A DNA stretch of 41,514 nucleotides from an uncultured Sandaracinaceae bacterium (GCA_964635815.1 CAZWQH010000003.1:1-41514), one strand, 5' to 3'. Numbered from the stretch's first letter, positions 6,938 to 35,768 are shown. Made by a program: numbers and translations. Notes: a model not told the origin generated them from the sequence alone.

Positions 6938-7242
6938 GACCCATCCGCCTCCGGAGCGCGGAATAAGAAACGGCGGACTCGTAGTTATGCGTTCTCACGC
7001 ACGTTACGAATCCGCCGGTCGAGTGACCTCTTATGGAGGAGGCAGTCTCGAGCGCTGTCTGGTTCGGGAGTTGCTGCGGTTGCAACAGCTCCCGAAGCTC
7101 AAACTAGTACTGCTGTGCCCCCAAGAAGAGGTCGATAGTACTGTGCATGTTTGACATTCCTCCCCCGGCAGATGCCGGTGCCCAGATTGTTCGAGAACGA
7201 ACGTCTTTCGACGTCGGCCCCTAGCGTTCGGGCATTCGTAGT

Positions 7243-7270
7243 GGGGACCATCCGCAAGCAATGGGTCCTC
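7243..7270 (+). repeat. Hairpin with CCGCAAGCA loop (member of GCAAG-loop family)
   Basis: GGGGACCAT / ATGG(G)TCCTC stem (9 pairs including one G-U, one bulge), 9-nt loop CCGCAAGCA. The G-U pair only works on the + strand. Confidence 0.45.
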
Positions 7271-7350
7271 GTTAGGTGTGCACCGTCGCGTTCTCGCGAC
7301 TCCGGACCATTCCGGGGCATGACCGTTGCAGACGTTGTGTTTCTTGCTCA

Positions 7351-7391
7351 GGCCCGCAAGCGGCCCTCACAGCTCGGTCCGCAAGCGACCG
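7351..7391. repeat. Two tandem hairpins GGCC-CGCAAGC-GGCC and (C)GGTC-CGCAAGC-GACC(G)
   Basis: 15-mers at 7351-7365 and 7376-7390 are 13/15 identical. The two differences (C7353/G7363 versus T7378/A7388) are a compensatory base-pair change in the stem. Confidence 0.55.
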
Positions 7392-7481
7392 TGCAAACCA
7401 AGCTAACACCAGCTTCTGAATCCGGGAAGATGTAGGCGTGCGAGCCGTGTTGAACTTGCTTCGGCCCGCAGGCGCTAGCTG

Positions 7482-8102
7482 CTACTGCGCTTGGCGCTCG
7501 ACGACGATCGCGTCAGAGCAACGGACGCCAGCCTTCTCGGACAGTGTTTTGTACCAGTCCGCGACTCGATTGGTCGTGTACGGCAGGTGCGCGGCTCCCC
7601 AGATTACGCTCAGAGTGCGCGTCGTATCGGGCGCTGTTTTCGTACGTTGGCTGTCTTTGACCGCGTTGCCGCAGGCGCCGTTGGCATCGAACAAACACAG
7701 CAGCCCATCGACGTCGATGATCTGGCCCCCAGAGTTGAAAACGTAACTGTCTGCCTTACGTGCGACAGCGATTCGATAGGGCGCTTCGGCACGCGTCGCG
7801 CAGACGACAGTGATTGGCAAACCGCTGTGTAGTGAGACCGCGTTGCAAAGGTCCACAGCAAGGTTGATCGAGGGAAACGTGCCCTTCTCCACCGCGCCAG
7901 CCAAGTACTCGGAAGCAGGTTTACCTCGACCTGTCGGCTTGTACCCGCCGAATCGAAGCATTTCACGTACTCGCGTGCGCACATCGTCGGTCGCGCGGAA
8001 CGGAGCTTCGGCGCCCGCGGCATGCAGCGCGGATACGTGACTGGGAACGTTCAGATCGCCGAGTGGCCCCGGAAACTCGGAAACGAAAACGGCCGCAACC
8101 AA
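7482..8102 (-). CDS. B3/B4 tRNA-binding-domain protein (PheT B3_4-like, stand-alone)
   Basis: RVREMLRFGGYKPTGRGKPASEYLAGAVEKGTFPSINLAVDLCNAVSLHSGLPI... matches the stand-alone B3/4 domain family pattern from memory. TTG start at 8102, uncertain. Confidence 0.65.
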   Translation of the reverse strand: MVAAVFVSEFPGPLGDLNVPSHVSALHAAGAEAPFRATDDVRTRVREMLRFGGYKPTGRGKPASEYLAGAVEKGTFPSINLAVDLCNAVSLHSGLPITVVCATRAEAPYRIAVARKADSYVFNSGGQIIDVDGLLCLFDANGACGNAVKDSQRTKTAPDTTRTLSVIWGAAHLPYTTNRVADWYKTLSEKAGVRCSDAIVVERQAQ

Positions 8103-14876: not shown

Positions 14877-15560
14877 TTGATCGTGCGCTTCGTAGCGCTC
14901 GTCTTTGTGATGGCGTCGACCACGGCGTGTGCCGGTGCGATGCCCACCTTTCTTGGAGGCTCCACCACGCCGCCGTCGCGAGTGAGTCTGTACCTGGGCG
15001 GAGCGGCTCGGATTCCGTTCGCGGAGTTGCGTCCTCAAAGCGATGCGGACGCAAACGCGGTCAGCAGTGGCCTCTCGCCCCTCGCGGCGGTTCGCTATGC
15101 GGTGATTCGAGGCACGGATCTTGGTGTTGCTGCTGTGGGCGCTGTCGCTCACGGCACGCTTCACACGCGTCGAGCGCTCACGTCGTCGCTGGGCTGGAGC
15201 CTGTTGCTCGATGCACACGGTGGAGCGTCCGGAGGCGCCTCGCGGGAGTGGGTTCCCCGCGCGGGGCTTACGACGACGAGCGGTATCACGGGATCGTTTG
15301 GCGGGATCGCAGAAGGGTGGCTCGCGCTTCGCGTCGGGGGCGAGTGGGTCGACAGCGCTTTGCGAATGTCGAGCGCGTCGGGCTCATCGGGCGTCGTTCG
15401 CGTGGGAGCGGTCCTGGGAGTTGGGTTCGGTTTCCGAAACACCTACGTGCTTCTGGAATGCGCTCTCGATCACGAATGGTGGTTCGCGCTCGGAAATAGC
15501 AGCGCCGGTGTCGCTGGTTTCAGCGTCACTCCCGGATTTGCGTTGCGTCTGACACTGTAG
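14877..15560 (+). CDS. Hypothetical lipoprotein / beta-strand-rich exported protein
   Basis: LIVRFVALVFVMASTTACAG (signal plus lipobox-like TTAC). The ORF-track start 14838 would overlap the ferredoxin gene; TTG 14877, GTG 14883 or ATG 14910 are plausible. The 3' end overlaps the convergent gene by 35 nt. Confidence 0.5.
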   Translation: MIVRFVALVFVMASTTACAGAMPTFLGGSTTPPSRVSLYLGGAARIPFAELRPQSDADANAVSSGLSPLAAVRYAVIRGTDLGVAAVGAVAHGTLHTRRALTSSLGWSLLLDAHGGASGGASREWVPRAGLTTTSGITGSFGGIAEGWLALRVGGEWVDSALRMSSASGSSGVVRVGAVLGVGFGFRNTYVLLECALDHEWWFALGNSSAGVAGFSVTPGFALRLTL

Positions 15561-18710: not shown

Positions 18711-18866
18711 CACTGGATATTTCGTGAATAAACGGCCTCGCCGATGACACGAATCTCTTGGCGTGCAAACCGGTGTTGCTTTTTGGATCGCGATCGCCGT
18801 ACAAACGCTCCGCGCGATTAACGCGAAGACTTGGAAGTAATCATTTCCCCCAAATGGAGGCTAGAC

Positions 18867-21800
18867 GTGCACGAGTTCCTGCGTAGATATTCACTAACGA
18901 TGTTGCTTTGCTCCGCTGTCATGGTTGGAGCCAGTGCGTCCTCCATAGGTTGCGGCGGGAACAATCCTCCGAATCCACCACCTGTCGATAGCGGCGGCGG
19001 CGGCACCGATAGCGGCGTAGTCGCTTCGGACGCCGGGGCGGACGCGCGTACGGACGTACCGACCACGGTCGTTCGTCTCATCGCGAATCCGACGACGGTC
19101 CCCGTCACCGAGGGTGCTACTGCAACCTTCACGATCGCGTTGAGCGCACCAGCGCCGACTGCGCTGACCGTGAATGTGGCGAGCAACAACACGGCGGCCG
19201 CGACGGTAAGTCCGGCCACTGTGCAGTTTGCAGCCGGAGACATGGCGGCAAAGACCGTCACAGTCACCGCCCCAGAAGATACGAACATCGCGAGCGAGAT
19301 GGTTACCATCACGGCGATGATCACGGGACTCGATCCCGTCAACGTTCGCGTCGACGTTACGGACAACGACATGGTTATGGTGCAAGCACCGACCATGGCG
19401 ACCGTCGTCGAAGGTCGAACCGCCGAGGTCATGGTGCGACTCAGCGCCGCGCCCACTGGCAACGTGACGATCGCGGTTTCCTCGTCCGCAACCTCGAAGC
19501 TCACCGTTGCTCCGACGACGTTGACGTTCACGCCCGCGAACTTCGCGACGGCGCAGACGATCACACTGACGGGCGTCGCTGACGACGATACCGCGAACGA
19601 CACGGCAAACCTCGTTCTGGCGGCAACCGGCGCTGCACCGGCAACCACGACGATCCCTGTATCGATCACGGACGACGATTCGCAGAACCTCGCGATCTCC
19701 TCCGGCTCGCTCCGCGTTACCGAAGGTGGCGCAGCAGGAACGTTCACGGTCACGCTCACACAGCGACCCGCAGCGAACCTCACGGTCACCATCGGAACGC
19801 GCAACATGCTCGTTGCGACGGGAGCCCCCACGACGCTGACCTTCACCCCGGCCAACTTCTCCACCGCCCAAACGGTTTCCGTGACCGGCGTGCAGGACAA
19901 CGACCTCCGAAACGACGCGACGGACATCACTGTCGATGCCCCCGGCCTCACCCAGCAGGTGGTGCGTGTCGATGTCACCGACGACGATGTTCAGACCATC
20001 GCGGTCCTTCCGGTCGGCGTAATCTCCATCAACGAAGGCTCGAACACCACGATCACGGTACGCCCGACCTTCGATCCAGGCGGCGGAACGTCGATCACGG
20101 CATCGTCCAGCGCAACCGGGAAGCTCACGGTCTCGCCGACCTCTGCACCGTTCAACAGCACGACGTTCACGATGCCGGCGAGCCTCACGCTCAACGCGCT
20201 TGAGGACTCCGACACCGCCAATGACTCGGTGACCGTCACGCTCACCGGCGCGGGCGCGGTCGACGTCACCATCATGGTGAACATCGTCGACAACGATCAG
20301 CAGGGCATCACGCTCTCTCCAGAGACCGCGGTCTCGCTTACCGAGGGCGGCACGACGACCGTCACCGCGCACCTCGACTTTGCGCCAGGCGCAACGGTCA
20401 CGCTCGCAGCAATGACGCAGAACGGCGCAGTCGCGACGATCTCGCCAGCGACCATTACGTTCAACGACGGGAACTACCTTGTTCCGCAGACGTTCACCAT
20501 CACCGCGCCTCCGGATGCGAACGGCGCCGCGGACAGCACGACGATTGCGTTTACGACCGGTAGCATCACCGAGAACCTCACCGTCAACGTCAACGATCGC
20601 GACACGCAAGGCTTCAACGCGCAGCCGAGCACCATTACGATTGGCGAAGGCGCATCCGACTCCTTCACGGTCTCGCTCAATCTCGTTCCCGGTTCGCCGA
20701 TCAACGCGGTCTTCGAGTCCAACAATCCCAAGATCACGGTCAGCCCGCCCAGCGCAACACTGAGCGACACGACACCGGTGACGGTCACGGTCTCCGGCGC
20801 GCAGGATGCGGACGCAGTAGACGAGTCCGCGATCATCACAGTCCGAGACAGTGCGACGACTCCTGCCGCGCCCTCGACGCCCGTCAACGTACGGGTTCTC
20901 GATGACGAGATGCAGCGCATCGTCCTCACGTCGCTCACTGCGCCGGCAGGCACGTCCAGCGGGAACCCGATCGCGGTTCGCGAAGGCTCCGCTCCTGCTG
21001 ACCAGTTCACCGTCGCACTCGCGGCAGCACCGGTCGGCACGGTAACCGTGTCGCTCGCGTCTACGAACACCGGTTCCATTACGGTGTCCTCGACCACGCT
21101 GACATTCGATGCTTCGAACTACATGACCCCTCAGAGCATCTCGATCACCGCGCATGACGACACGAATCTCGTGGACGAAGACGTCGAGATCATCGCGACG
21201 TTGTCGGGCGCGCCGAACAACTCGATTTTCGCGCGTAATCGCGAAGACGACCTACAGGCGATCGTCATCAACCCGAGCGGTACGATTACCGTAACTGAGG
21301 ACGAGAACCCGGCGACGTTCATCGAGGTATCGCTCCAGTATCAGCCAGCGACTACCGTCCAGATCAGCATCGCGTCCAACCAAGCGTACGCAGTCGTCGG
21401 AACAGGAACGCTTCTCTTCACGACGACCGACTACAACATCCCACAGCGCGTTCTCGTGACGACGCCGTCGGATGCTGACCAGATCAATCCAGGATCGGCG
21501 ACGATCACCGCGTCGGTTACCGGCGTTCCGAGCGTCACGGTCAACGTGGACGTGCTCGACAACGACGTTCAGTCGATCATCTTCACGCCGCAATCGCTCA
21601 CGGTCCAAGAAGACGACCCCCCCGGACCGCGCTCGCAGACGTTCGAGGTGAGCCTCGCGTTCGTCCCGACATCTGCGACCGAGACCGTCTCGGTCACCAG
21701 CACGGATACCAACAAGGCCACCGTCTCCACGCCCTCGCTGTCGTTCAACGCGGGCAACTACAGCACTCCGCAGATGGTCACCGTGACGAGCGTCGACGAT

Positions 21801-23999
21801 GTTGACGTGGACAACGAGGACATTTCGGTTCTGCTGGATTCCTCGCTCATTGCCGGCGCGGTTAACGGCACGATTTCGGTTCGCGTTACCGACAACGACA
21901 TCATCAACCTCGACAACAACCCGGTCTCCGTGACGCTGGACGAAGGTCCAGGCGGCACGACCTCGACGGTGGCAACGCTTCGTTTGACGCGCGATCCTTC
22001 GACGCCGTTGACCGTTGCGCTCGTCTCGTCCAACGCGGCCAACGTCGCCGTCTCGCCTGCGTCGCTTACGTTCGATAGCAGCAACTGGATGATCAACCAG
22101 AACTTCACGATTAGCGGCGTCATCGATGCCGACGTTCGTGACGAGCAGGAAACCATTGCGTTGACGCCAGATCGCGGCGGCGTCCCCTCGGGTGTGGTGA
22201 ACGTCACTGTCATCGACCCGAACAACCAAGGCATCGTGCTCGACACCACTTCGGTCACGTTTATCGAAGGCGGAGCCGGCGAGTTCAATGTCTCGCTCGC
22301 ACAAGAGCCGACCAATCCGGTCACGATTACGATCACGTCCGACAACGGAGAGATCGTCCCCGGTGGCCCGTTGACGTTCGACGCATCGAACTTCAGCACC
22401 GCTCAAGCGGTCTCGCTTGGCTCGCCTGAAGACATCGACCTCGACGACGAGCGCGCAAACCTTACGGTATCCATCACGTCGTCACAGGGTTCAGGGTCAC
22501 CGGAAGGTGCCACGAACCGAACGGTCAGCGCTCGCGCACGCGACAACGATACCCAAGGCATCACGGTTACGTTCTCGCCGGTCGGCCTGACCAACTCTGC
22601 ACAGGAGAACGGACCGGCTGTCCGATTCTTCGTCAACCTGACCGCGCCACCGCGCGGACCAGGCAACGACGTCCTCCTGATTACACCGCCAGCGGGTCAT
22701 ACGTTCCTCGCCCCCGGTTCGCTCACGTTTACGGATGGCAACTACGCCACGCCGCAAGAAGTGAGCTGGCAGGCTCTTCACGATGCGGATACCAACTCGT
22801 TTGCCGGGAACTTCCGCCTCCGAGTGGACGAATCGGGCGATCCGGACGGCCCGCACGCAGACGTTGTCGTCGACCATCCAATCGCAGTTCGCGATGACGA
22901 AGGTTACCCCGGCGACATCCAGACCCGTAACTTCAACACGCTCACGGGAGCGACGGAGTTCACACAGCGCGGCAACATCGCGTGGGGCATCGACACCTAC
23001 GCCATCACGGGTCGTGGAACCACCGACCTGATGGCTGCCGTCGACAACCGCGACGTCAGCGGGTCTCCCGCTTTCAGCCCTGCTATCGCGTCCGGTACCA
23101 TCAACGGAAATCCGACAACCGAGATCATCAAATGGAACTCGGATGACGGTGTCTGGGATGTGTTTTCCTCCGATGCGACCGGAATCGTCTATGCGCGCCT
23201 CTCAGCAGATGGTTCCGCGCTCGCGCTCGACCGCACCACGGTCGTCGGCGTAGGGCAAAATCCGACGGACTTCTCCGTAACACGTAACGGTTCGACGTAC
23301 GGTCTGGTCTATCGACGCGACCAAGGTTCGTTCCAGAACCTTTGGTTCACGATGGTGAACACTGGAACGGGCGCAGCGACGACCCCGACTCAGGTCAGCA
23401 CCGCGACGGGCAACACGCACCTTCATCCTCAGATTCACTACGTTGGTGGGTCGGGCTCGACCTATCTCGCAACGGCGACGCCCTGGGTGGTCCTTTACAC
23501 CGAGAGCGGCAGCAGCTCGTTCCGCTGCGTTCGTTTGACGACAGCGGGCGGAAATCTCGCGACCAAGATCTTCTCGGCCGCCGAGCACCGTGGCGACTTC
23601 TCGTCGTCGGTGTGGGACTCTGCGGGAAACCGTCTTGTGTCCGCGCATCACAACCCGGTTCAGGGTCTGGTCGCGACCGAGATCTTCCTTCCGTCGGCTG
23701 GCGCTGATGCGTGTCTCGCAGGAGTCACCGCTCAGCTTCGTACCGCTGTGGGGACGAACTTCATCTCGCCTCCGCAAATCGCGTATAACGGTGTCGAGTT
23801 CGCCGTGGCGTTCGACGACACAGTCGTCGGCGTCCCGTCGGTCGGTGTCGCGACATGGAACGGCGTCTCGGCGCTTGGCCAGAGCAACATTCTTCCCAGC
23901 AGCCCTGGGCAGAACCCCTCCATTGCGTGGGCGTTGGATCGCTGGATCCTCCGCTATGCAACAACGACGAACGTAGTGGTGAAGACCTCCGCGTTCTGA
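18867..23999 (+). CDS. Giant lipoprotein: 12 tandem Calx-beta/cadherin-like beta-sandwich repeats + ~365-aa propeller-like C-terminal domain
   Basis: GGAGG at 18856-18860, then GTG 18867. Signal/lipobox SASSIGCGG. Repeats of ~100-110 aa span 19068-22901. Each has the form ..VTEGG..FTV.L...P...VTV......SP..LTF...N...PQ.V.V....D.D... and ends in an acidic boundary (VTDNDM, ITDDDS, VTDDDV, IVDNDQ ...). The C-terminal 22902-23996 has recurring W/Y-containing blade-like segments. Confidence 0.8.
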   Translation: MHEFLRRYSLTMLLCSAVMVGASASSIGCGGNNPPNPPPVDSGGGGTDSGVVASDAGADARTDVPTTVVRLIANPTTVPVTEGATATFTIALSAPAPTALTVNVASNNTAAATVSPATVQFAAGDMAAKTVTVTAPEDTNIASEMVTITAMITGLDPVNVRVDVTDNDMVMVQAPTMATVVEGRTAEVMVRLSAAPTGNVTIAVSSSATSKLTVAPTTLTFTPANFATAQTITLTGVADDDTANDTANLVLAATGAAPATTTIPVSITDDDSQNLAISSGSLRVTEGGAAGTFTVTLTQRPAANLTVTIGTRNMLVATGAPTTLTFTPANFSTAQTVSVTGVQDNDLRNDATDITVDAPGLTQQVVRVDVTDDDVQTIAVLPVGVISINEGSNTTITVRPTFDPGGGTSITASSSATGKLTVSPTSAPFNSTTFTMPASLTLNALEDSDTANDSVTVTLTGAGAVDVTIMVNIVDNDQQGITLSPETAVSLTEGGTTTVTAHLDFAPGATVTLAAMTQNGAVATISPATITFNDGNYLVPQTFTITAPPDANGAADSTTIAFTTGSITENLTVNVNDRDTQGFNAQPSTITIGEGASDSFTVSLNLVPGSPINAVFESNNPKITVSPPSATLSDTTPVTVTVSGAQDADAVDESAIITVRDSATTPAAPSTPVNVRVLDDEMQRIVLTSLTAPAGTSSGNPIAVREGSAPADQFTVALAAAPVGTVTVSLASTNTGSITVSSTTLTFDASNYMTPQSISITAHDDTNLVDEDVEIIATLSGAPNNSIFARNREDDLQAIVINPSGTITVTEDENPATFIEVSLQYQPATTVQISIASNQAYAVVGTGTLLFTTTDYNIPQRVLVTTPSDADQINPGSATITASVTGVPSVTVNVDVLDNDVQSIIFTPQSLTVQEDDPPGPRSQTFEVSLAFVPTSATETVSVTSTDTNKATVSTPSLSFNAGNYSTPQMVTVTSVDDVDVDNEDISVLLDSSLIAGAVNGTISVRVTDNDIINLDNNPVSVTLDEGPGGTTSTVATLRLTRDPSTPLTVALVSSNAANVAVSPASLTFDSSNWMINQNFTISGVIDADVRDEQETIALTPDRGGVPSGVVNVTVIDPNNQGIVLDTTSVTFIEGGAGEFNVSLAQEPTNPVTITITSDNGEIVPGGPLTFDASNFSTAQAVSLGSPEDIDLDDERANLTVSITSSQGSGSPEGATNRTVSARARDNDTQGITVTFSPVGLTNSAQENGPAVRFFVNLTAPPRGPGNDVLLITPPAGHTFLAPGSLTFTDGNYATPQEVSWQALHDADTNSFAGNFRLRVDESGDPDGPHADVVVDHPIAVRDDEGYPGDIQTRNFNTLTGATEFTQRGNIAWGIDTYAITGRGTTDLMAAVDNRDVSGSPAFSPAIASGTINGNPTTEIIKWNSDDGVWDVFSSDATGIVYARLSADGSALALDRTTVVGVGQNPTDFSVTRNGSTYGLVYRRDQGSFQNLWFTMVNTGTGAATTPTQVSTATGNTHLHPQIHYVGGSGSTYLATATPWVVLYTESGSSSFRCVRLTTAGGNLATKIFSAAEHRGDFSSSVWDSAGNRLVSAHHNPVQGLVATEIFLPSAGADACLAGVTAQLRTAVGTNFISPPQIAYNGVEFAVAFDDTVVGVPSVGVATWNGVSALGQSNILPSSPGQNPSIAWALDRWILRYATTTNVVVKTSAF

Positions 24000-24115: not shown

Positions 24116-27058
24116 ATGCGCGTTTCACAGCTGCTTGGATTGGTTAGTTTGTCGGTATTCGTTGCGTTGAGCGGTTGCGGAAGCAACACCGCTCCGCCAG
24201 GTGGAAATAATGACGCTTCGGTGATCAACACCGAAGGCGGTAGTGGCGAGGCTGGCGCGATCGATGTTCGTGTGAATCCGGACGTCGTGGTTCCCGCAGA
24301 TCGCCCGGTTACGCCGGACGTTGTGGTTCCCACGGATCGTCCCGTGACGCCCGACGTTGTGGTGCCCGCGGATCGCCCGGTCACGCCCGCGGACGTCGTG
24401 ATTCCGACCGACCGACCGGTCACACCCTCGGACGTCGTGGTTCCCACGGACCGCCCGGTTACGCCTGTGGACGTCAACGTGGTGCCGCCGGTTGATAGCG
24501 GAACCCCTGCTCCGGACGTAGTTACGGTTCCGGACACGGGCACGCCCTGTACCGAGACCACGTGTGGCGCAAGTTGCGTCGACACGGACGAAGATGTTGC
24601 GAACTGCGGAGGATGCGGAAACGATTGTCGCAACCTTCCGGGCACGGCCTCGGCTAGCGCAACGTGTTCGGACGGCACTTGCGTGATCGCTTGCGCTGCC
24701 GGTCGCGACAACTGTAGCGGCGGCGTGGCGGACGGCTGCGAGACCGACCTCTCGCTTCCTGCGACCTGCGGCGGATGCGGCACATCGTGCAACGAGCCCA
24801 CACCACTGTGCGGCCTCGTCGCAGGTTCGTTCCAATGCTCGAGCGGCTGCGAGGGTCGTACACCCACGCGCTGTGGAGGCAGCTGCGTGGATACTACGAG
24901 CGACCCGAATCACTGCGGCAACTGCGACACGAGCTGCACGGCTCCATCCAACGCGAGTGCGACGTGCACCACCGGTGATGGTTCGAGCACCTGCGGTTGG
25001 GTATGCAATAGCGGCTTCTACCGCTGTGGCGATGCGTGCGTTCCAGTTGCCGTCAACGGCAACTGCTCGGACGGCAACTTGGCTGACGGCGACGGCTGCA
25101 GCGCACTTTGCGCGGTCGAAGACGGATACTCGTGCACAGGGGCGCCTTCTACTTGCAGCACCTCGTGCGGCGACGGCATTCAGGTCGGTACAGAGGCGTG
25201 CGACGACGGCCGACAAGACGACGGCGACGGTTGCGACTCAGACTGTGCGCTCGAAACCGGATTCAACTGCTCGGGCACGCGCCCAACCAACTGCACGGCA
25301 ATCTGCGGAAACGGCTTGCTTCAGGCTGGCGAAACCTGCGACGACAACAATACCGACACGCGCGATGGCTGCGGGTCCGACTGTCGCCCGGAGGGTGGCT
25401 GGACGTGTGATGGAGCATCGCCTTCGACGTGCGTGACGACCTGCCAAGACGGATTCTGGGTCCCCCAGGTCGAAGGCTGCGATGACGGTAATCCGACGGA
25501 CGGTGATGGCTGCTCGATCGGTTGCACTGTCGAAACAGGCTGGGACTGCAGCAGCGGCACCTGCGTTCCGATGTGCGGCGACGGTCTGGTTCGTGGAAGC
25601 GAAACCTGTGACCAAGGTGGGTTCATTCCGAACAGCTGGCCAGGACCTGGTGGTGGACTTCCGCCTCCCACCGGTGGCTGCGATCGCGACACGTGCCAAA
25701 CGCTCCCCGGATACACATGCATGGGGGAGCCCAGTGTGTGCATGACGGGCTGCGGCGACGGCATCATTGCTGGCATCGAACAATGCGACGACGGCAACAT
25801 GGACCTCGGCGACGGCTGTTCGTCTTGCGCCATCGATCTCGGGTTCAGCTGCGCCGGTAGCCCGAGCACGTGTATGACCAGCTGCGGTGATGGCATTCGC
25901 GCGGGCATGGAAATGTGCGACGACGGCAACCCGAACGTTGGCGATGGCTGTACGTCGTGCGATGTAGACAACGGCTGGGGATGCACGGGTTCGTTGCCGA
26001 GCACATGCGCTCCTGTTTGCGGTGACAGCCAGCTTGCTGGCGGTGAAACCTGCGACGACGGCAACCCAGATTCGGGCGACGGCTGCAGCAACTTGTGCAA
26101 CTTCGAACGAGGCTATGTGTGCGGGCCGGAGCTGCCGAGCATCTGCAACGCGTTCTGTGGTGACGGCATCATCGTCGTCGGCCGTGAGACCTGCGACGAC
26201 GTCGGTCGCGTACCCGGCGACGGCTGTAACGCCGACTGCCAGGTCGAAAACAACTGGAGCTGCGCCGGCGAGCCGAGTACCTGTGACCTTTGCGGTAACG
26301 GGTTCATCTTCTCGACTGAGGCGTGCGACGACGGTGGCCTCAACACCGGCGACGGCTGCGACGGTTCATGTCAGCGCGAGCCGGGTTACCGGTGCACCCC
26401 GACGAGTGGTCCTGGACCGAGCGTTTGCGTCGCGACGTGCGGAAACGGGATCGTCGAACCCGCTGAGGGTGAGACCTGCGACGACAACTGGCGCAACATA
26501 CCGGGTGCAACGGGTGGTGGGGGTGATGGATGCTCATCGACCTGCACGATCGAACCGGGCTTCAGCTGCGCAGGTTCCATCTGCCGTGGCTCGTTCACGA
26601 CGACGTCGCCGCTACGGATTCCGGACGCTACGTCGGCGGTCACTCAGACGCTTGTAACCAGTTTGACGAATGCATGCGTGTTCACGGACGTAGACGTGAC
26701 GAACGACTACGACGAGGGGTATTGCACCGGACGCGGATGTGGTCACACGTTCGGCGCGGACTTCTACGTCCAGATCACGAACGGGGGGACGACGACATTC
26801 CTCCACAACCGTGAGCACGGCGGTTTGGATCTTCAGAACGTATTCGTGTACGACGACGCTGCAGCGGTGGCGTGGGGCTCCGCGCCCAACAATGGTGACG
26901 ACGTGGCCGGTGGGACGTACCGTCCCTCTGGCTCCCTCTCCGTCTTCAACAACCTGGCCGCGAACCCGAACTGGGTCTTGACTGCACAGGACACGGTCGG
27001 CGCGGACGAAGGCCAGATCCAGACATGGACGGTCAACGCGCGATGTCGCGTGAACTGA
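24116..27058 (+). CDS. Lipoprotein with Pro-rich tandem repeats, CxxC-rich region, 11 Myxococcus-type cysteine-rich repeats and a C-terminal proprotein-convertase P-domain-like module
   Basis: GGAGGAAG RBS precedes ATG 24116. Lipobox ALSGC. (PDVVVPxDRPVT)x5. Three copies of C..CVDT..D...CG.CG..C. Eleven repeats of the form CGDGI..G.E.CDDGN...GDGCS..C..E.G..C.G.PS.C (about 25055-26587), as in TIGR02232/DUF4215 from memory. The final 156 aa (26588-27055), ...LRIPDATSAV...ADFYVQITNGGTTTFL...GGTYRPSG...WVLTAQDTVGADEGQIQTWTVNA, is P-domain-like. Confidence 0.8.
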   Translation: MRVSQLLGLVSLSVFVALSGCGSNTAPPGGNNDASVINTEGGSGEAGAIDVRVNPDVVVPADRPVTPDVVVPTDRPVTPDVVVPADRPVTPADVVIPTDRPVTPSDVVVPTDRPVTPVDVNVVPPVDSGTPAPDVVTVPDTGTPCTETTCGASCVDTDEDVANCGGCGNDCRNLPGTASASATCSDGTCVIACAAGRDNCSGGVADGCETDLSLPATCGGCGTSCNEPTPLCGLVAGSFQCSSGCEGRTPTRCGGSCVDTTSDPNHCGNCDTSCTAPSNASATCTTGDGSSTCGWVCNSGFYRCGDACVPVAVNGNCSDGNLADGDGCSALCAVEDGYSCTGAPSTCSTSCGDGIQVGTEACDDGRQDDGDGCDSDCALETGFNCSGTRPTNCTAICGNGLLQAGETCDDNNTDTRDGCGSDCRPEGGWTCDGASPSTCVTTCQDGFWVPQVEGCDDGNPTDGDGCSIGCTVETGWDCSSGTCVPMCGDGLVRGSETCDQGGFIPNSWPGPGGGLPPPTGGCDRDTCQTLPGYTCMGEPSVCMTGCGDGIIAGIEQCDDGNMDLGDGCSSCAIDLGFSCAGSPSTCMTSCGDGIRAGMEMCDDGNPNVGDGCTSCDVDNGWGCTGSLPSTCAPVCGDSQLAGGETCDDGNPDSGDGCSNLCNFERGYVCGPELPSICNAFCGDGIIVVGRETCDDVGRVPGDGCNADCQVENNWSCAGEPSTCDLCGNGFIFSTEACDDGGLNTGDGCDGSCQREPGYRCTPTSGPGPSVCVATCGNGIVEPAEGETCDDNWRNIPGATGGGGDGCSSTCTIEPGFSCAGSICRGSFTTTSPLRIPDATSAVTQTLVTSLTNACVFTDVDVTNDYDEGYCTGRGCGHTFGADFYVQITNGGTTTFLHNREHGGLDLQNVFVYDDAAAVAWGSAPNNGDDVAGGTYRPSGSLSVFNNLAANPNWVLTAQDTVGADEGQIQTWTVNARCRVN
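24278..24463 (+). repeat. In-frame tandem repeat, 36/39-bp period x5 (PDVVVPADRPVT units)
   Basis: Five consecutive imperfect units are visible in both DNA and protein. Unit lengths are 36, 36, 36, 39 and 39 nt. Confidence 0.85.
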
Positions 27059-29305: not shown

Positions 29306-31177
29306 ATGAAATCTCAGCCCAACGCTTTTAGTCTTCTACTCTCACTGCTGCTTCTTGCGGGATGCGCTTCGGAAACGAAGGCGCCCGCCGGCAACGGAAG
29401 CGACGACTTCGCGCTCTCCTCTCTAGCCGAGCTTCGTGAGGGCGTGCCGCTCGCGGCCGACCTTCCGTCGGAAGCGAAGGCCGACGGAATCTATCCGCGT
29501 CAGTTCGACCTGATCGCGACGCAATCGCCGGTGAAGAATCAGGCCAGCCGGGGTGTGTGCACGATGTTCTCGACGACGGCGCTCGTCGAGCATCTCTACA
29601 TCGTCGCCAACGCGCTTCCGAACCCAGACTTCAGCGAGCAGTACCTTCAGTGGTCTTCGAAGGTGCAGCAGCGCGCGTACGCGAGCAGCGAAGGCGGAAA
29701 CAACGACAAGAACCTTCTTGCGATCAACCGTTTTGGAACGGTCGAAGAAGCCGCCTGGCCGTACGAGCCCTCGCCCTGGAGCGAAGCAAACGACCCGGCT
29801 TGCAAGGGAGATAGTCGTCCGACGCGGTGCTACACGAACGGTGAACCCCCCGCGAGCGCTACGTCCGCACAGAAGTTCAATATCGCCACGGGCCGATGGA
29901 TCAGCCCGCAGCGCGCGAGCATTCAAGCGCACATGGCCACTCGCCGAACCGCTGTCGTGGTCGGTCTCGATTTCTTCTATCAGTCGTGGAATCACGGCCG
30001 CTCGACACTCCCGATCTCGCAGGAGTACCTGTCGAACGGATACGTTCTCTATCCGAGCGAGGCGGACAAAGCCGCGAGCCGAATGACCCCTGCCGGTCAC
30101 GGAATCTTGCTTGTCGGGTGGAACGACGATCTCGAAGTACAGCAACTCAACTCAATGGGACTGCCGGCGGTCGATGCGATGGGACGCCCGATCATGCAGA
30201 AGGGGTTCTTCCTGTTCAAGAACAGCTGGGGCACTGCAAAGTTCGGCCGCGCAACACCGGCCGACAAAGGTGGAGCGGGCTACGGCTGGATCTCGTATCG
30301 ATACATCGAGGAGTTTGGCAGCGCGTACGTTTCCACCCCACCGGAAGCCGTTGTTGTCGCCGAGGTCTGCAACGACACGCGTGACAACGATGGTGACATG
30401 AAGATCGATTGCGACGACTCCGATTGCGCATCGAACTCCGCGTGCGGTGGAACAGGCAACATGTTCAGCGCGACGCCGAACGCTGCGATTCCAGACAACG
30501 CAGCCGCAGGTGTCACCAGCACGATCGAAGTTCCGACGGGCACGAACGTCAGCTCGCTCTCGGTCACCGTCGACATCGCGCATACGTACATTGGAGATCT
30601 GACTGTTCAGCTGACCAAGGGCACGCGAACCGTGACGCTTTGGGACAAAGACGGCGGAGGTGATGACAACCTTCAGCGCTCGTTCACACCGCGCGATTTC
30701 GAAGGACAGGCAGCTGGTGGAACCTGGACGCTCAAGGTCATCGACAGCGCTGGCTCGGATGTGGGAACGCTTCGCTCGTGGAGTCTTGCGATCGTTCAGT
30801 CGTCGGGCGGTGGTTCGGCGATGACGCAGACGTACACGAGCACGGCGGGAGCAATCGCGATCCCGGATAATCTTCCGAGCGGTGTGACGAACTCGATTGG
30901 CGTGACTGAGACTGGAATGGTGCGTCGTCTCGCTGTGACGGTTAACATCACGCACCCCGTTCGCGGTGACTTGATCGTGCGCTTCACGAAGCAGGGCGGC
31001 ATGCCCGTGACGCTTTACATGGGCGAGGGCGGAAATCTCCAGAACCTCACCCGTACATTCGAGGTGCCGTCCTACGTTGGCCAAGCGTCCGAGGGGACGT
31101 GGCAGCTGACAGTCGCAGACCGGGCGCGCGGCGATATGGGTTCGCTTACGTCCTGGTCGATGACGATCACTCGCTGA
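29306..31177 (+). CDS. Lipoprotein papain-family (C1) cysteine peptidase fused to a Cys/Asp-rich linker and two proprotein-convertase P-domains
   Basis: Lipobox LLLLAGC. Q79-x5-C85 (KNQASRGVCTMFS), H265 (PAGHGILLVGWND) and N305-S-W (FKNSWG) form the papain catalytic set. Linker CNDTRDNDGDMKIDCDDSDCASNSAC. Two ~110-aa modules (about 30461-30796 and 30827-31174) carry IPDN...V.V.I.H...GDL.V.L....T..L......TW.L.V.D....D.G.L.SWS. Confidence 0.85.
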   Translation: MKSQPNAFSLLLSLLLLAGCASETKAPAGNGSDDFALSSLAELREGVPLAADLPSEAKADGIYPRQFDLIATQSPVKNQASRGVCTMFSTTALVEHLYIVANALPNPDFSEQYLQWSSKVQQRAYASSEGGNNDKNLLAINRFGTVEEAAWPYEPSPWSEANDPACKGDSRPTRCYTNGEPPASATSAQKFNIATGRWISPQRASIQAHMATRRTAVVVGLDFFYQSWNHGRSTLPISQEYLSNGYVLYPSEADKAASRMTPAGHGILLVGWNDDLEVQQLNSMGLPAVDAMGRPIMQKGFFLFKNSWGTAKFGRATPADKGGAGYGWISYRYIEEFGSAYVSTPPEAVVVAEVCNDTRDNDGDMKIDCDDSDCASNSACGGTGNMFSATPNAAIPDNAAAGVTSTIEVPTGTNVSSLSVTVDIAHTYIGDLTVQLTKGTRTVTLWDKDGGGDDNLQRSFTPRDFEGQAAGGTWTLKVIDSAGSDVGTLRSWSLAIVQSSGGGSAMTQTYTSTAGAIAIPDNLPSGVTNSIGVTETGMVRRLAVTVNITHPVRGDLIVRFTKQGGMPVTLYMGEGGNLQNLTRTFEVPSYVGQASEGTWQLTVADRARGDMGSLTSWSMTITR

Positions 31178-31202
31178 ACCAAGCTCATCATTGAGTAGTG
31201 GG

Positions 31203-31234
31203 ACGCGGTCCATGTTCTTCATGGATCGCGTTTC
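31203..31234 (+). terminator. Terminator-like hairpin after the C1 peptidase gene
   Basis: ACGCGGTCCATG (31203-31214) pairs with CATGGATCGCGT (31220-31231): 12 bp including one G-U that only works on the + strand. 5-nt loop. The tail is only TTTC. Confidence 0.5.
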
Positions 31235-31350
31235 TAATTGAGCCACCCCATCAGCGGCGTGTGTAGTCGTGCGAGGAGATCGATGGGCTCAGCGCGATGT
31301 CCACTCTCGGGACGTTGTCCAACGGTACCTAGCGAACCAATGATGTCGCT

Positions 31351-31522
31351 CGCCGGTCGCGGACAGGTGTCTCCTCGGGACGCGGAGTTGCATTCCGGCC
31401 CTGCAAGATGTGACCGCGACGGGCCGGGCAACTCCGCTCGTCGCTCAGCCAATCGGAGACTTCGCCGACCAGCCGATTGGCATTCGCGGCCGCCCTCCGG
31501 AGACACCCGTCCGCGCCCAGCG
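31351..31522. other. Nested inverted-repeat element (three-helix junction); candidate structured RNA or MITE-like element
   Basis: Outer arms 31351-31374 / 31499-31522 (21 of 24 Watson-Crick). Inner hairpins 31382-31437 (10+7 bp) and 31448-31481 (9 bp). See findings. Confidence 0.55.
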
Positions 31523-31595
31523 GTCGCGCCAACCGGGTGCTCTCTGGCCGGGACGCGAGCGCGGGCTAGGTGGGTTCGAGGGGACGCCGCGAGTG

Positions 31596-31627
31596 CCAAT
31601 CGGCACATTGTTTGAGCCTCCGATTGG
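31596..31627. repeat. Second CCAATCGG-N16-CCGATTGG palindrome
   Basis: Same 8-bp arms and same 16-nt spacer length as 31449-31480, with an unrelated spacer sequence. Confidence 0.7.
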
Positions 31628-31847
31628 ACACGAGCGATGAGTGAACCCCGCGCGGCGCTATCCCTGTCAGCTCTCCGCGCCGCATGTGCGGGGTGAACGA
31701 CCCCGAGCGGCCCATCGAGCCAAAGCGAGCGCTAGCCATCGCGCACGCTCCGAATGCTGCTGCAGAAGCCACTCTCGCTGACGCGGGCAAGTAGGACTAA
31801 GGGCGTTAACGACTACTCAAACAAGACTGCTTGGGTGTTGCAACGAG

Positions 31848-32993
31848 CTAGGGGTTGGCGCGGCTGGTAGTGACTGATAGCGTTGCGGGAACGCCGGGGG
31901 CCGCGCGCGTCCGACCGGGACGGCGACCGCGACCGCCGGGTGCAGCGGCCGGTCCGCTGGGCGCGTTGTACGTCCCGACCCAGACATCGTACTGACCCAG
32001 TGCCGGACGCTCAAAATCGAGAGTTGGGTTACGGCTTCCGAAGCTATCGTCGTTGCACACCCAGCGACCGTCGGGCGTATTGATCAACAGCACAGTATCC
32101 GCGGACGACTCGTCGGTCGGCGCCACGTGAAAGCGCAGAAACGTAAACGGGTTTGCCGAGGCCGCGACCACGAATCGGAAATCCGGGCGCTGCGGGATGT
32201 AGCCGTCGTCGCAAACGCTTCCGCTCGAGGCCTCTGTGATGTGCAAGCTCTCGACGACGACCGGGTCTTGGCCTGCGTTGACGCTGAATGTGTGGAGGGT
32301 CGGATCCGGTGCGAGAGGAGCGCGCAGTACGCACGGGGATCGTCCGCCTCGACAACCCGCGTTGGTTCGATCGGACGTGGAGTCGATGCAGACCTCGCGA
32401 TTCGCGTACGTGTGACCACACATTCTCGACCCAGCGGAAGCATTCGCTGCAACTGCAGCGCTTGCCCCCCCCGCTTGCCACGCACTGGAGATGGCTCCCT
32501 CGGGATTTGCGCGGACACCAAGCTCGTAGGCGACGTCGCGGCCCTGCCGAAAGAGGCCCACCCAAACCGGGTACGAGCCTTCGCCCAACGTTACGTCGAC
32601 GCCAGGGTTGTTCGATCCCGCGCTGTCGTCGTCGCACATTGCACCGCCTGGGGTCATCACGGCGATCGTCGTGTCTTCGGCGCTGCGTGCGGCGACTCGA
32701 AGGACGCGTGGCGCGCCATGAACCACGAGAGTGTGGGTGGGCTCGAGCGACCCGTACCCGCGACATCCCGTACCAATCGATGCGTGATTGGCTTCTGCGC
32801 GGATGGTGCCGGTGCGCGTGATGAGCTCGGTCGTTCCTTCTGGAATGTCTATCGGACTCACTACTGCGAAGCGAGGCTGCGCGGCAGGACCGGGGTCGAC
32901 CCCTGTGGGTTTGAACTGCGCGCGACCGGTCCGGGGATGGAAGGACGACGCAATCAAGAGCGAAGTCACTGCAAGGTGCCAACGTGCATTCAT
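31848..32993 (-). CDS. Secreted protein with two copies of a ~110-aa C.DDS.G..NP...G.Y.VWVG module (pre-peptidase C-terminal-like?)
   Basis: ATG 32993 gives MNARWHLAVTSLLIASSFHPRTGRAQ (signal peptide). Module 1 reads ...TTIAVMTPGGAMCDDDSAGSNNPGVDVTLGEGSYPVWVG. Module 2 reads ...TVLLINTPDGRWVCNDDSFGSRNPTLDFERPALGQYDVWVG. The upstream extension to 33281 in the track is antisense to the next gene's promoter region and is unlikely. Confidence 0.6.
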   Translation of the reverse strand: MNARWHLAVTSLLIASSFHPRTGRAQFKPTGVDPGPAAQPRFAVVSPIDIPEGTTELITRTGTIRAEANHASIGTGCRGYGSLEPTHTLVVHGAPRVLRVAARSAEDTTIAVMTPGGAMCDDDSAGSNNPGVDVTLGEGSYPVWVGLFRQGRDVAYELGVRANPEGAISSAWQAGGASAAVAANASAGSRMCGHTYANREVCIDSTSDRTNAGCRGGRSPCVLRAPLAPDPTLHTFSVNAGQDPVVVESLHITEASSGSVCDDGYIPQRPDFRFVVAASANPFTFLRFHVAPTDESSADTVLLINTPDGRWVCNDDSFGSRNPTLDFERPALGQYDVWVGTYNAPSGPAAAPGGRGRRPGRTRAAPGVPATLSVTTSRANP

Positions 32994-33101
32994 GACGGTG
33001 AGAGTGTACACGATCAGGACTCCTGTGCCGCGGCCCCATGGGGTTGCTTTAAGCCACGCGTTCACCCAGCTCGGCAGAGGTGCGGCCCTCGAGAGACGTT
33101 C

Positions 33102-33896
33102 ATGGACTACGCAATATTCCGTCGATTCCCTCAGCGTCCCTTGATTTACGGCCACCGAGGCGCAAGCGCGGTCGAGCCTGAGAACACCATGCGAGCGTTC
33201 GAGCGCGCGTTTCGTGATGGTGCAGACGGTGTCGAGTGCGACGTGAGGCTGACTTCGGGCGGTGAGGTCATCGTTCTGCACGACGTAGACACGCTGCGCG
33301 TTGCCGGCACGAGCGTGCGTGCTCGAACGGCCTCGCTGGCCGACCTACGTCGGATCGACGTGGGAACCGGTGAGCGCATTCCACTTCTCGCCGATCTTCT
33401 GGACCTGGCCTCCGCGCGCGGTGGTCTCGTCAACGTCGAGCTCAAGGGTGACGACGTCAACAGGGCTGCTTTGGTACGAGCGACGATGCAGGTCGTGCGG
33501 GACTCCAAGGCCATGAAAGCTCGCGTCCTCTACTCGACGTTCGACGTAGCCATGTTTCTCATGCTTCGCGCTGCGCGTGTCGCGACCGCCCAAGCTGCGC
33601 CTGTCGGACTTCTTCTTGAGACCTCTTCTGCCGAACGATTTGCGCGACGTGGATGGATGAAGGCGATTTCACCGAACGCCGTACATCCCCCCCATCACGC
33701 GCTGAGCGCGAGCTTCGCGTCACGCATCAAGAGCACCGGCGCGGTGCTCAACGTTTGGACCGTGGATGCAACCGCCGATCTGCTTCGCATGAACGAGCTT
33801 GGCGTGGACGGAGTGGTCTCAAACGACGTTCTGCACGCTAGAACGGTGCTGGGTCCGGGCACGGTCCGAACTTCGGGGCCCGTTTCTGGCGGCTAG
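33102..33896 (+). CDS. Glycerophosphodiester phosphodiesterase (GDPD family)
   Basis: MDYAIFRRFPQRPLIYGHRGASAVEPENTMRAFERAFRDGADGVECDVRLTSGGEVIVLHD carries the GDPD HR...E.T and E.D motifs. ATG 33102 lies inside the 589-aa track ORF, whose first 325 codons are antisense to the previous gene. Confidence 0.85.
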   Translation: MDYAIFRRFPQRPLIYGHRGASAVEPENTMRAFERAFRDGADGVECDVRLTSGGEVIVLHDVDTLRVAGTSVRARTASLADLRRIDVGTGERIPLLADLLDLASARGGLVNVELKGDDVNRAALVRATMQVVRDSKAMKARVLYSTFDVAMFLMLRAARVATAQAAPVGLLLETSSAERFARRGWMKAISPNAVHPPHHALSASFASRIKSTGAVLNVWTVDATADLLRMNELGVDGVVSNDVLHARTVLGPGTVRTSGPVSGG

Positions 33897-33945
33897 AACG
33901 AACGCGCCGCCTTGTTTCTGGCGGCTAGAACGAACGCGCCGCGTT
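33882..33945 (+). repeat. 32-bp tandem duplication (2 copies, 31/32 identical) spanning the GDPD stop codon
   Basis: GTTTCTGGCGGCTAGAACGAACGCGCCGC(C/G)TT appears at 33882-33913 and 33914-33945. Confidence 0.9.
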
Positions 33946-33962
33946 GAGTATGCTACGCGCTC

Positions 33963-35768
33963 ATGCCTTCCTTGACGTGGATGGTCCCAACAGGTCAGCC
34001 GCGACCATTCGCTGTTTACAAAAACGTGACGAGTATCGGCAGTGGCCTCGGTAACGACGTTGCTGTCGATTCCAAAGGGGTCGCCGAGTTCCATGCGCAG
34101 CTCGTGTTCGATGGGAAGGAGTTCAACCTCGAAGAGGTCGACCGCGTCGGCGAGATCTTGCTCAACGGCAAGAAGAAGCGTCGCGGGCGAGTCATCCACG
34201 GCGACCGCATCACGGTCGGCGATGCGGAGCTCGCATTCAGCATCTTCGACATCCCGATGCACGATTCGAACGAGGACGCTGCCTCAGCTCCCGCAAACGA
34301 TCTGAACGGTCTGCGGAAGCTCTTCGACTTCAGTCAGAGCTTGATGATGACGGGCTCCGTCGAGGGCCTTCTGGAGCGCCTTCTCGATTCGGTGATCGAA
34401 GTCACGCACGCGGACAAAGGCTTCTTGATTCTACTCAGAGATGGCGAGCCAAGAGTCACCGTGGCGCGGAACTTGAGTCAGGGAAACCTTCCCGATGGCG
34501 TGAAGCATCTGTCAGACAGCATTCTCCAACGCGTGATCGAAACGCGCCGTCCTCTGATCGTCAGCGATGCCCTTCATGACACGGTCTGGAAGACGAGCGA
34601 GAGCGTCATGAACCTGCAGCTGGTCTCTGTCATGTGCGCACCTCTGGTGGCTCAGGGCGATCTGCTTGGCGTCCTGTATGTTGGAAACGATCGCGTCGTG
34701 AATCTTTTCGAGGAAACGAGCCTCGACGTCTTCACGGTCTTTGCGGGACAGGCCTCGCTAATTCTTCAGAACGCGCTTCTCCTCGATCAGGTCAAGACGG
34801 ATCGCGACGAGCTCAAGTCACAGCTCGAGCGCCAGCAGTTTGGAGACATCGTAGGCGCATGCGCGCCCATGCTCGAGGTCTATCGAAAGGTCGAGAAGGT
34901 CGCGACGACCGACATCAACGTGCTCATTACCGGCGAAACGGGAACCGGAAAGGAGCTCATCGCGCGCGAGATTCACCGTCGCAGTCCGCGCGCGAAGGGG
35001 CCGTTCGTCGTCGTGAACTGCGGGGCAATTCCCGAGAACCTCATGGAGTCCGAGCTCTTCGGACACGTCCGCGGTGCGTTTACCGGCGCGGTCGCGACGC
35101 GCATCGGAAAGTTTCAAGCCGCCAATCTTGGGACTCTCTTTCTCGACGAGATTGGTGAGCTCCCCCTCGCTCTGCAAGTGAAGTTGCTTCGCGCTCTTCA
35201 GGAGCGCGAGATCACCAAAGTCGGTGACTCAAAGTCGGAGCGGATCGACATCCGAGTGGTCGCGGCTACGAATCGCGATCTCGACGCCGAGGTGAAGAAG
35301 GGAGCGTTCCGCGAAGACCTCTTCTATCGTCTCAACGTCGTCAATCTACACTTGCCACCGCTGCGTGAGCGCGGCGACGACGTTCTTGTGCTGGCGAAGT
35401 ACACGCTAGACAAGACTGCGCGCGAGCTGAACTCGCAGGTGAAAGGCTTCACCCCGAATGCCCTCGCGGCGGTGCGTCGGTACGAATGGCCGGGCAACGT
35501 TCGTCAGCTCGAGAATCGGATCAAGAAGGCGATCGTTCTCTGCGAGAAGACCTTGCTAGGAACGGAAGATCTCGAGCTTATGCCCGAGGTGCTCCAGCCG
35601 ATTATGTCTCTCACGCAAGCGCGCGAAGACTTTCAGCGTCGCTACATTGCAGACGTCCTCGAACGCAACGGTGGCAATCGCACGAAAACGGCGCGCGATC
35701 TCGGCGTCGATCCACGCACCATCTTTCGTTACCTTGAGCGCGACGGCGACATCGAAACGCCCGAGTGA
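33963..35768 (+). CDS. Sigma-54-dependent transcriptional activator with FHA and GAF sensor domains
   Basis: FHA-like N-terminus (...VTSIGSGLGNDVAVDSKGVAEFHAQLVFDG...NGKK...L..GD.I.VG). GAF-like middle. AAA+ core GETGTGKELIAREIH, the GAFTGA loop (HVRGAFTGAV), and ...LFLDEIGELPL...LLRALQE. C-terminal Fis-type HTH NRTKTARDLGVDPRTIFRYL. Confidence 0.9.
   Translation: MPSLTWMVPTGQPRPFAVYKNVTSIGSGLGNDVAVDSKGVAEFHAQLVFDGKEFNLEEVDRVGEILLNGKKKRRGRVIHGDRITVGDAELAFSIFDIPMHDSNEDAASAPANDLNGLRKLFDFSQSLMMTGSVEGLLERLLDSVIEVTHADKGFLILLRDGEPRVTVARNLSQGNLPDGVKHLSDSILQRVIETRRPLIVSDALHDTVWKTSESVMNLQLVSVMCAPLVAQGDLLGVLYVGNDRVVNLFEETSLDVFTVFAGQASLILQNALLLDQVKTDRDELKSQLERQQFGDIVGACAPMLEVYRKVEKVATTDINVLITGETGTGKELIAREIHRRSPRAKGPFVVVNCGAIPENLMESELFGHVRGAFTGAVATRIGKFQAANLGTLFLDEIGELPLALQVKLLRALQEREITKVGDSKSERIDIRVVAATNRDLDAEVKKGAFREDLFYRLNVVNLHLPPLRERGDDVLVLAKYTLDKTARELNSQVKGFTPNALAAVRRYEWPGNVRQLENRIKKAIVLCEKTLLGTEDLELMPEVLQPIMSLTQAREDFQRRYIADVLERNGGNRTKTARDLGVDPRTIFRYLERDGDIETPE

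Follow-up and report, generated by a model that had tools for sequence, protein, structure and literature searches.

Genetic setting of the gap

We analysed a contig of 41,514 nt, referred to here in its full length as the window, in which a gap of 670 bp (31178-31847) is flanked by convergent genes. The genes, terminators and structured units of this region are as follows.

29306-31177, + strand: papain-family peptidase with a P-domain, the gene to the left of the gap
31200-31234, + strand: canonical intrinsic terminator belonging to the peptidase gene, with a stem of 13-15 bp and then UUUCUAAUU, upstream of E1
31351-31522, 172 nt: E1, the intact copy, made up of an outer helix, hairpin H1, hairpin C and linkers
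31436-31641: imperfect palindrome of 206 nt, composed of M1 (31436-31522, the right part of E1) and M2 (31546-31641, the left part of E2)
31523-31553: spacer between E1 and E2, 31 nt, G+C-rich, with no promoter-like site
31554-31731: E2, the diverged copy, inverted relative to E1, found as a structure-model match
about 31554-31577 and 31707-31731: outer arms of E2
31595-31628: hairpin C', the E2 counterpart of hairpin C
about 31641-31698 (core 31648-31695): two-tier hairpin H4, the E2 counterpart of H1
31722-31757, - strand: candidate weak terminator, AGCGUGCGC...GCGCUCGCU followed by UUGG, read from the sequence and the fold
stop at 31848, start at about 33065, - strand: 405-aa protein with no Pfam domain, the gene to the right of the gap

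The nearest GltX overall was 73% identical to that of the contig, and the named GltX homologues (63-66% identity) were annotated as Myxococcota, Polyangiales or Sandaracinus. Judged from its encoded sequences, the host is a Polyangiales-like myxobacterium (Myxococcota) from an unsampled lineage. The contig also encodes DUF4215 cysteine-rich repeats and an FHA-GAF-sigma-54 activator, and a tRNA search of the contig found none.

The gap itself is non-coding, in agreement with the initial annotation, which had called it gene-free. Its ORFs had an atypical GC1/GC2/GC3 pattern, unlike that of real genes, a Pfam search with them gave zero matches, and a word-index search returned neither a homologue nor a self-hit; the lone HMMER match of a gap ORF, to an unrelated eukaryote-like repeat protein, was judged to be driven by composition, leaving no credible homologue. 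Scans for promoters found no sigma-70-like site in 31000-32000 and no sigma-54 site in the gap at up to 2 mismatches, both scans being weak tests for a myxobacterium.

The peptidase gene ends in an intrinsic terminator (31200-31234) that starts 23 nt past its stop codon and folds with -29.9 kcal/mol (z -4.6), which shows that U-tract terminators are used by this organism. On the opposite side, the hairpin at 31722-31757 lies downstream of the - strand gene (stop 31848) and overlaps the outer end of E2; the terminator scan did not call it.

Other long convergent gaps of the contig, 5253-5381 and 6938-7481, were also rich in hairpins, with sequences unrelated to one another. The entire 129-nt gap at 5253-5381, between convergent ychF (4077-5252, +) and an ORF at 5382-6467 (-), forms one long imperfect hairpin (MFE -65.2 kcal/mol, z -4.8) closed by GTTGTAGCGA/TCGCTACAAC (5252-5261 / 5370-5379), which is probably a bidirectional 3'-end structure. 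The gap at 6938-7481 (544 bp), between convergent ORFs at 6485-6937 (+) and 7482-8102 (-), contains three strong hairpins (6971-7017, 7063-7096 and 7025-7039/7119-7133; z -4.4); it was among the top MFE outliers of the contig and matched neither an Rfam family nor our models R1 and R2. Since these gaps are filled with hairpins, stable structure at convergent 3' ends seems usual here.

Several further features of the contig were recorded. Beyond the gene to the right of the gap lies an unusually long intergenic region of about 900 bp (33066-33962), between the divergent genes for the 405-aa protein (-) and the sigma-54 activator (+). It contains two tandem 32-nt units at 33882-33945 (GTTTCTGGCGGCTAGAACGAACGCGCCGCCTT, 97% identical), each with a GGCGGC...GCCGCC inverted repeat, which stop 18 nt short of the start codon (ATG) in the gene for the FHA-GAF-sigma-54 activator (33963-35768). 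As the RNA fold of these units was not significant (z -0.9), they are more likely a duplicated DNA site. The DUF4215 repeats belong to a 980-aa protein (24116-27058), in which eight cysteine-rich repeats correspond to DNA repeats of 132-141 nt; near its N-terminus, at 24279-24465, there is also a distinct array made of five repeats of 36-39 nt. The remaining large ORFs included a STAND-type NTPase of 855 aa (AAA_22/NB-ARC/NACHT, 10345-12912), a 758-aa ORF with zero Pfam matches (15526-17802) and a 1722-aa ORF with sub-threshold Ig-like or fibronectin-like matches only (18831-23999).

E1 forms three nested helices

The initial annotation described E1 as a three-way junction, and every helix of that description was recovered at its place. 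The outer helix (31351-31374 / 31499-31522) is complementary at 21 of its 24 positions, the mismatches being 31354/31519 (C.A), 31357/31516 (T.C) and 31365/31508 (A.C), and includes a 17-bp core with one A.C. It encloses hairpin 1 (H1, 31382-31437), with 10 and 7 perfect pairs separated by a 3-nt bulge and a 19-nt loop, and hairpin 2 (hairpin C, 31448-31481), with 9 perfect pairs and a 16-nt loop. The linkers measure 7, 10 and 17 nt (31375-31381, 31438-31447 and 31482-31498). When the 172-mer was folded in isolation, exactly the described junction was obtained, and with the partner copy excluded the outer helix formed with a probability of 0.99 on both strands. None of the 47 model pairs of E1 is a G.U pair on the + strand.

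The structure clearly exceeded what chance would give, as had been claimed. The MFE of E1 was -99.6 kcal/mol on the + strand (z -6.1) and -111.0 kcal/mol on the - strand (z -6.45), with 0/200 shuffles as good, and among all 172-nt segments of the contig E1 ranked first on the - strand (GC-corrected z -5.2) and second on the + strand. Inverted repeats of 24 nt that match at 21 or more positions and are separated by no more than 300 nt occurred twice in the contig, both times in the gap at 31178-31847, compared with a chance expectation of 0.017 (mean of 60 dinucleotide shuffles of the contig).

A diverged, inverted copy lies 31 nt away

Although the element was as the initial annotation described it, a second copy, E2, lying 31 nt away had been missed. 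We built a covariance model of E1 with its three helices (R2) and scanned the whole contig unfiltered. The model matched E2 over its full length on the - strand (40.2 bits, E 1.8e-6), while the next-best match in the contig reached 15.7 bits; the best background score in 1.5 Mb of unrelated DNA was 28.7 bits, for a generic palindrome in locus L006. A sequence-only model (R3) scored 26.4 bits against E2, over positions 47-166.

E2 has kept the helices of E1 in spite of its divergence. On the model alignment, 39/47 pairs were kept; both partners had changed in 13 pairs (terminal helix 5, hairpin 1/H4 8) and just one partner in none, counts that rest on two sequences and on an alignment fitted to the model. 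When the partners were slid by 1-3 columns, pairing was 26-41%, and 0/500 shuffles reached the E2 value. RNAalifold, applied to a structure-blind MAFFT alignment, recovered the outer helix, hairpin C and the inner part of hairpin 1, with 8 compensatory pairs between the two sequences, 4 of them in the terminal helix. Folded alone, E2 gave the same junction (-86.4 kcal/mol on the + strand, -78.9 kcal/mol on the - strand). Its arm duplex on the + strand had an energy of -28.7 kcal/mol (p 0.005), and the H4 hairpin had a z of -2.6 to -2.7. With the partner excluded, the terminal helix of E2 formed with a probability of 0.5-0.6 on the + strand and at most 0.16 on the - strand.

Conservation between the copies was uneven along the unit. 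The identities of E1 and E2 by part were as follows.

Linker 1: 86%
Linker 2: 80%
Linker 3: 71%
Hairpin 2 stem: 17/18
Hairpin 2 loop: 5/16
Terminal arms: 46-50%
Hairpin 1: 49%

The conserved linker blocks read CTCGGG, TCRTCGCTC and TCGCGGC, and the conserved non-stem blocks of the unit can be written as CCAATCGGAGNCT-N(10-13)-GCCGATTGGCAYTCGCGGC. Hairpin C has the form GCCAATCGG-N16-CCGATTGGC; the four 8-mers of C and C' are identical and the loops are unrelated. This 8-mer thus occurs in 4 exact copies within 180 bp, and 8 times in the whole window compared with 1.5 expected. Homology between E1 and E2 ends at the ends of the terminal helix, with no significant likeness between the outer flanks (p 0.3-0.6) or between the halves of the spacer (p 0.56). 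A direct (tandem) repeat relation of E1 with the downstream region was not significant, and neither was a larger palindrome reaching past the unit; the relation is strictly inverted. The gap holds a two-member family with a conserved fold, of which E1 is the intact and E2 the decayed member. It is a genuine and statistically robust feature, with more structure than was first described.

The two copies together form a competing palindrome

Because the copies are inverted and only 31 nt apart, a palindrome competes with the junction. The imperfect palindrome at 31436-31641 gave a BLAST self-hit of 182 nt at 67% identity and a global alignment score of 50, compared with -18 +/- 10 for shuffles; its MFE was -134.4 on the + strand and -124.3 on the - strand. 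In all contexts that contained both copies, on either strand, the palindrome formed with a probability of 0.99, the outer helix and hairpin 2 fell to 0.00, and hairpin 1 was the sole helix of E1 that survived. The three-way junction proposed initially therefore holds for isolated E1 and is lost (probability 0.00) once 31523-31660 is included.

If transcription read through into E1 and E2, a stem of about 90 bp, including about 20 continuous base pairs, would be expected. Such a stem could plausibly serve as a barrier to exonucleases and as a substrate of RNase III.

Strand sense

The outer helices carry a hint of strand sense. Both A.C mismatches in the outer helix of E1 become G.U on the - strand, as had been pointed out, and the terminal helix of E2 contains three G.U pairs when read on the + strand, equivalent to the - strand of E1 since E2 is inverted. 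All 5 wobble positions of the outer helices thus favour one common sense (two-sided p ~0.06), and the energy gaps between the strands were 11.4 kcal/mol for E1 and 7.5 kcal/mol for E2. Wobble pairs within the palindrome were split 10 to 6 between the strands and were uninformative.

The hint had been taken to mean that E1 folds in the 3' region of the transcript of the 31848 gene, and this was not supported. Read-through from that gene crosses E2 first and therefore would not form the junction: with E2 passed first, the palindrome replaces it (P of the outer helix 0.00). No U-tract follows any helix of the unit, and no terminator lies past either copy in the favoured sense.

Searches for relatives and for mobilising genes

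The searches for further members of the family gave chance matches or nothing. In the 41.5-kb contig, neither BLAST nor R2 found a third copy of the unit; zero further copies in 41 kb limit the family only to roughly <700 copies per 10 Mb (Poisson estimate). The arm core GGAGACACCYGTCCGCG gave 111 single chance matches in 185,579 GTDB species genomes, 118 single matches in JGI metagenomes and 2 chance matches in IMG/VR; as this core is a covarying part of the unit, it is a poor probe, and the block of linker and hairpin 2 would suit better. BLAST of the gap against all 229 fetched genome and metagenome loci gave no extension past the seed, and the 486-nt gap core, searched with blastn in plasmids and in phages, gave nothing. 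The conserved block GCCGATTGGCAYTCGCGGC had no match in IMG/VR. R1 and R2 found no credible copy in the loci of relatives or in 1.5 Mb of unrelated loci.

The pattern of hairpin C gave at least 120 matches in IMG/VR, of which 61 came from one unrelated phage family and the rest were chance-like. These 61 viral loci (L234-L353, e.g. L235 926-956), mostly from sample 3300045988 and on contigs mostly of about 65-185 kb, all carry CCAATCGG-TTTGTGTTTATCATC-CCGATTGG, the spacer being identical throughout, and represent a conserved palindrome of a single phage family unrelated to the window.

At gathering thresholds, no Rfam family matched over the window, in line with the initial annotation, which had recognised no known RNA family. 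A search of Rfam 15 over the gap at E<=10 returned only far sub-threshold models of plant miRNA precursors, which we attribute to the long palindrome. The hammerhead core motif was absent from the unit region, as was the motif GTTRRRY on either strand, and GTAG was absent from both strands of 31340-31740.

Among the ORFs of the 41.5-kb contig that were scanned, none was found to encode a transposase, a RAYT, an integrase or a reverse transcriptase. GTCGC occurs at 31345-31349 and 31523-31527, the left copy lying one base off the repeat, and E2 has no such pair. The proteins encoded by the window had no database record of their own. An orthologous locus was not found, because in the nearest relatives gltX synteny breaks down on the side in question; homologues of the neighbouring gene (31-34% identity) were not syntenic and had downstream gaps of 108-133 nt. 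A literature search on MITE, REP or REPIN elements in myxobacteria found nothing relevant.

Comparison with known systems

The unit shares most with the REP/BIME/REPIN elements of E. coli and Pseudomonas, which are mobilised by RAYT. Like the unit, these are extragenic and typically lie between convergent genes. Their conserved stem and variable loop are matched by hairpins C and C', and the larger hairpin formed by alternating copies is matched by the M1(+)/M2(-) palindrome at 31436-31641. REP elements act as folded single-stranded DNA, and their transcribed copies protect or end mRNA 3' ends; by analogy, the unit may do likewise. REPs occur in tens to hundreds of copies per genome together with a cognate RAYT gene, and proteobacterial REPs carry a conserved GTAG next to the hairpin. 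By contrast, the unit, known in two copies only, is far larger (about 175 nt, with three helices) and lacks GTAG, the contig yielded no RAYT, and the terminal and H1 helices of the unit covary while their sequence is not conserved.

Bacterial MITEs (Correia/NEMIS, ERIC/IRU, RUP and Nezha) resemble the unit in being 100-200 bp long, non-coding and intergenic, in having terminal inverted repeats (TIRs), and in their very stable folds, often beside terminators or each other. They differ from it in that the terminal repeats of the unit are just 46-50% identical between the copies, its putative target duplication GTCGC is ambiguous, being one base out of register, and neither a parent IS nor dispersed copies were found. 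The MITE reading of the initial annotation stands for the 24-nt TIRs, the 172-bp length, which lies in the 50-500-bp range of such elements, and the non-coding nature of E1. A classical MITE is not supported, because the terminal repeats are unconserved, the target duplication is ambiguous and dispersed copies are not shown.

Two further systems were rejected. Retron msr-msd RNA, classic in myxobacteria, has long a1/a2 inverted repeats that enclose two stem-loops over 150-250 nt and is known from Myxococcota, all of which is alike. However, no reverse-transcriptase gene is adjacent to the unit or present in the scanned contig ORFs, its flanks being a peptidase and a 405-aa protein without Pfam domain; there was no Rfam msr match, and the unit occurs as an inverted pair in a convergent gap. 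Integron attC sites are likewise single-strand sites that conserve structure over sequence, are strand-specific and, when long, have branched tips. The unit, however, lacks the R'/R'' core (RYYYAAC / GTTRRRY), and no integrase was found in the scanned contig ORFs; it also lacks cassette ORFs, and its orientation is inverted, not uniform.

Intrinsic and bidirectional terminators, including the repeated palindromic terminators of G+C-rich bacteria, are similar in placing strong G+C-rich hairpins at convergent 3' ends. They differ in that no U-tract follows the helices of the unit, the + strand gene already has its terminator at 31200-31234, and the architecture of the unit is far more elaborate than termination requires.

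Interpretation of the unit

The initial annotation had offered a structured RNA and a MITE as readings; both remain leading explanations, and neither is proven here. We tentatively favour the reading that the unit is a non-autonomous palindromic repeat of the REP/BIME/MITE class, which would act through folded single strands. This reading is suggested by the fact that the unit was copied without its flanks and with no promoter-sized upstream region, and by the retention of the C stem while the other stems have diverged by about 50% and the C loops agree at 5/16 positions. A constant stem whose loop is free to vary is typical of REPs and suggests that a DNA hairpin or duplex is recognised by its sequence, as is established for REP-RAYT and the ends of IS200/IS605. 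The almost purely Watson-Crick pairs, with no one-sided G-C/G-U intermediates, argue in the same direction, as do the alternating orientation and the extragenic position between convergent genes, as in BIMEs. The absence of a promoter-like site, a sigma-54 site and an Rfam family, together with the loss of the junction in transcripts covering both copies, also favours a palindromic repeat. The gaps of only 108-133 nt downstream of homologues of the neighbouring gene are consistent with inserted DNA at this locus.

Against a palindromic repeat, only two copies are known and these are adjacent, searches elsewhere gave chance matches or nothing, and the scanned contig ORFs encode no mobilising enzyme. 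The terminal repeats are the least conserved part (46-50%), the opposite of a transposase-bound TIR, and there is neither a clean target-site duplication nor GTAG. Conserved junction linkers with covarying helices are the classic signature of a functional RNA fold, and the linkers of the unit are conserved (86%, 80% and 71%) next to covarying helices; the five wobble positions, moreover, share one sense.

As a palindromic repeat, the unit would have been copied as a discrete piece of DNA, presumably through mobilisation. Hairpin C would then likely be the sequence-specific recognition site of a protein encoded elsewhere and acting in trans, while H1/H4 and the terminal helix would be kept as shapes only. 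The unit would have been placed in a safe site between the own terminators of the two genes, and on read-through each copy, or the palindrome, would yield a very stable RNA end.

A new three-way-junction structured RNA in two paralogous copies is the main rival, which we consider less likely. In one variant each copy would be transcribed separately, E1 on the - strand and E2 on the + strand, diverging from the spacer, and continued transcription would run antisense to the 3' ends of the neighbours; in another, each convergent gene would have one copy at the end of its 3' UTR. The functional core would be formed by the conserved junction strands. The fold favours an RNA in that E2 retains all three helices and 39/47 pairs, with 13 compensatory changes, against 26-41% in the slid controls, and in that RNAalifold found helices on a structure-blind alignment too; those comparisons are, on the other hand, between two sequences only, with one alignment fitted to the model. 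The single-stranded linkers are the best conserved parts (71-86%, compared with 46-50% in stems), E1 has a z of about -6, and without the partner the fold forms with a probability of 0.99 for E1 and 0.5-0.6 for E2 on the + strand. Both copies also agree in wobble sense at 5/5 positions, with energy gaps of 11.4 and 7.5 kcal/mol; with five positions, however, the two-sided p is only ~0.06, and G.U pairs are almost absent. Recognition of an RNA would not usually leave a C stem perfectly conserved and its loop free. Expression poses a further difficulty: there is no promoter-like site, the 31-nt G+C-rich spacer is too short for two divergent promoters, the copies share no upstream homology, neither copy has a terminator behind it in the favoured sense, and read-through from either gene would give the palindrome and not the junction. 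Rfam matches and the hammerhead core motif are both absent. The more specific proposal that E1 and E2 are paralogous genes or cis elements of a lineage-private three-way-junction RNA, with the core CUCGGG/UCRUCGCUC/UCGCGGC or its complements, E1 on the - strand and E2 on the + strand, is in our judgement rather unlikely.

The same pairs could also have arisen without selection, although we consider this improbable. A one-off inverted duplication by template switching, its stems maintained by hairpin-templated (quasipalindrome) correction, would contribute stable structure to the convergent gap and serve no other function. It would account for there being only two copies, adjacent and inverted as template switching produces them, and arm-to-arm correction of DNA fits the Watson-Crick-only pairs, the two-sided changes and the lack of G.U intermediates; the other convergent gaps of the contig, hairpin-rich without shared sequence, also fit. 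Such correction cannot, however, keep the C stem or the linkers alike between the copies, and these were kept while the loops and the other stems diverged by about 50%; in addition, homology does not continue past the edges of the unit, and the spacer lacks symmetry. Very improbable, finally, is a duplex-DNA protein site or switch, with GCCAATCGG-N16-CCGATTGG operators forming two dyads 147 bp apart for a looping regulator, or with the 24-bp repeats flanking an invertible segment of 124 bp. The four exact 8-mers within 180 bp (8 in the window, 1.5 expected) would suit operators, and inverted repeats around 124 bp resemble the geometry of an inverton. The position at convergent 3' ends, by contrast, offers neither a promoter nor a downstream gene to regulate, no recombinase was found on the contig, half-sites 16 bp apart are widely spaced for a dimer, and the covarying H1/H4 and outer helices would be left unexplained.

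Implications

When a striking helix set is found in a convergent gap, a nearby inverted partner copy should be looked for, because such a partner explains the apparent structure and competes with it. If the RNA reading were true, the unit would represent a previously undescribed junction-type fold whose two copies provide an internal control for covariation, and transcription continuing past the units would produce RNA antisense to the 3' ends of the two convergent genes. If the unit is a palindromic repeat, it would be the first REP/MITE-like element described in this poorly sampled branch of the Myxococcota, and the retention of its shape without that of its terminal sequence, which would be an unusual trait, could point to a mobilising enzyme that reads structure.
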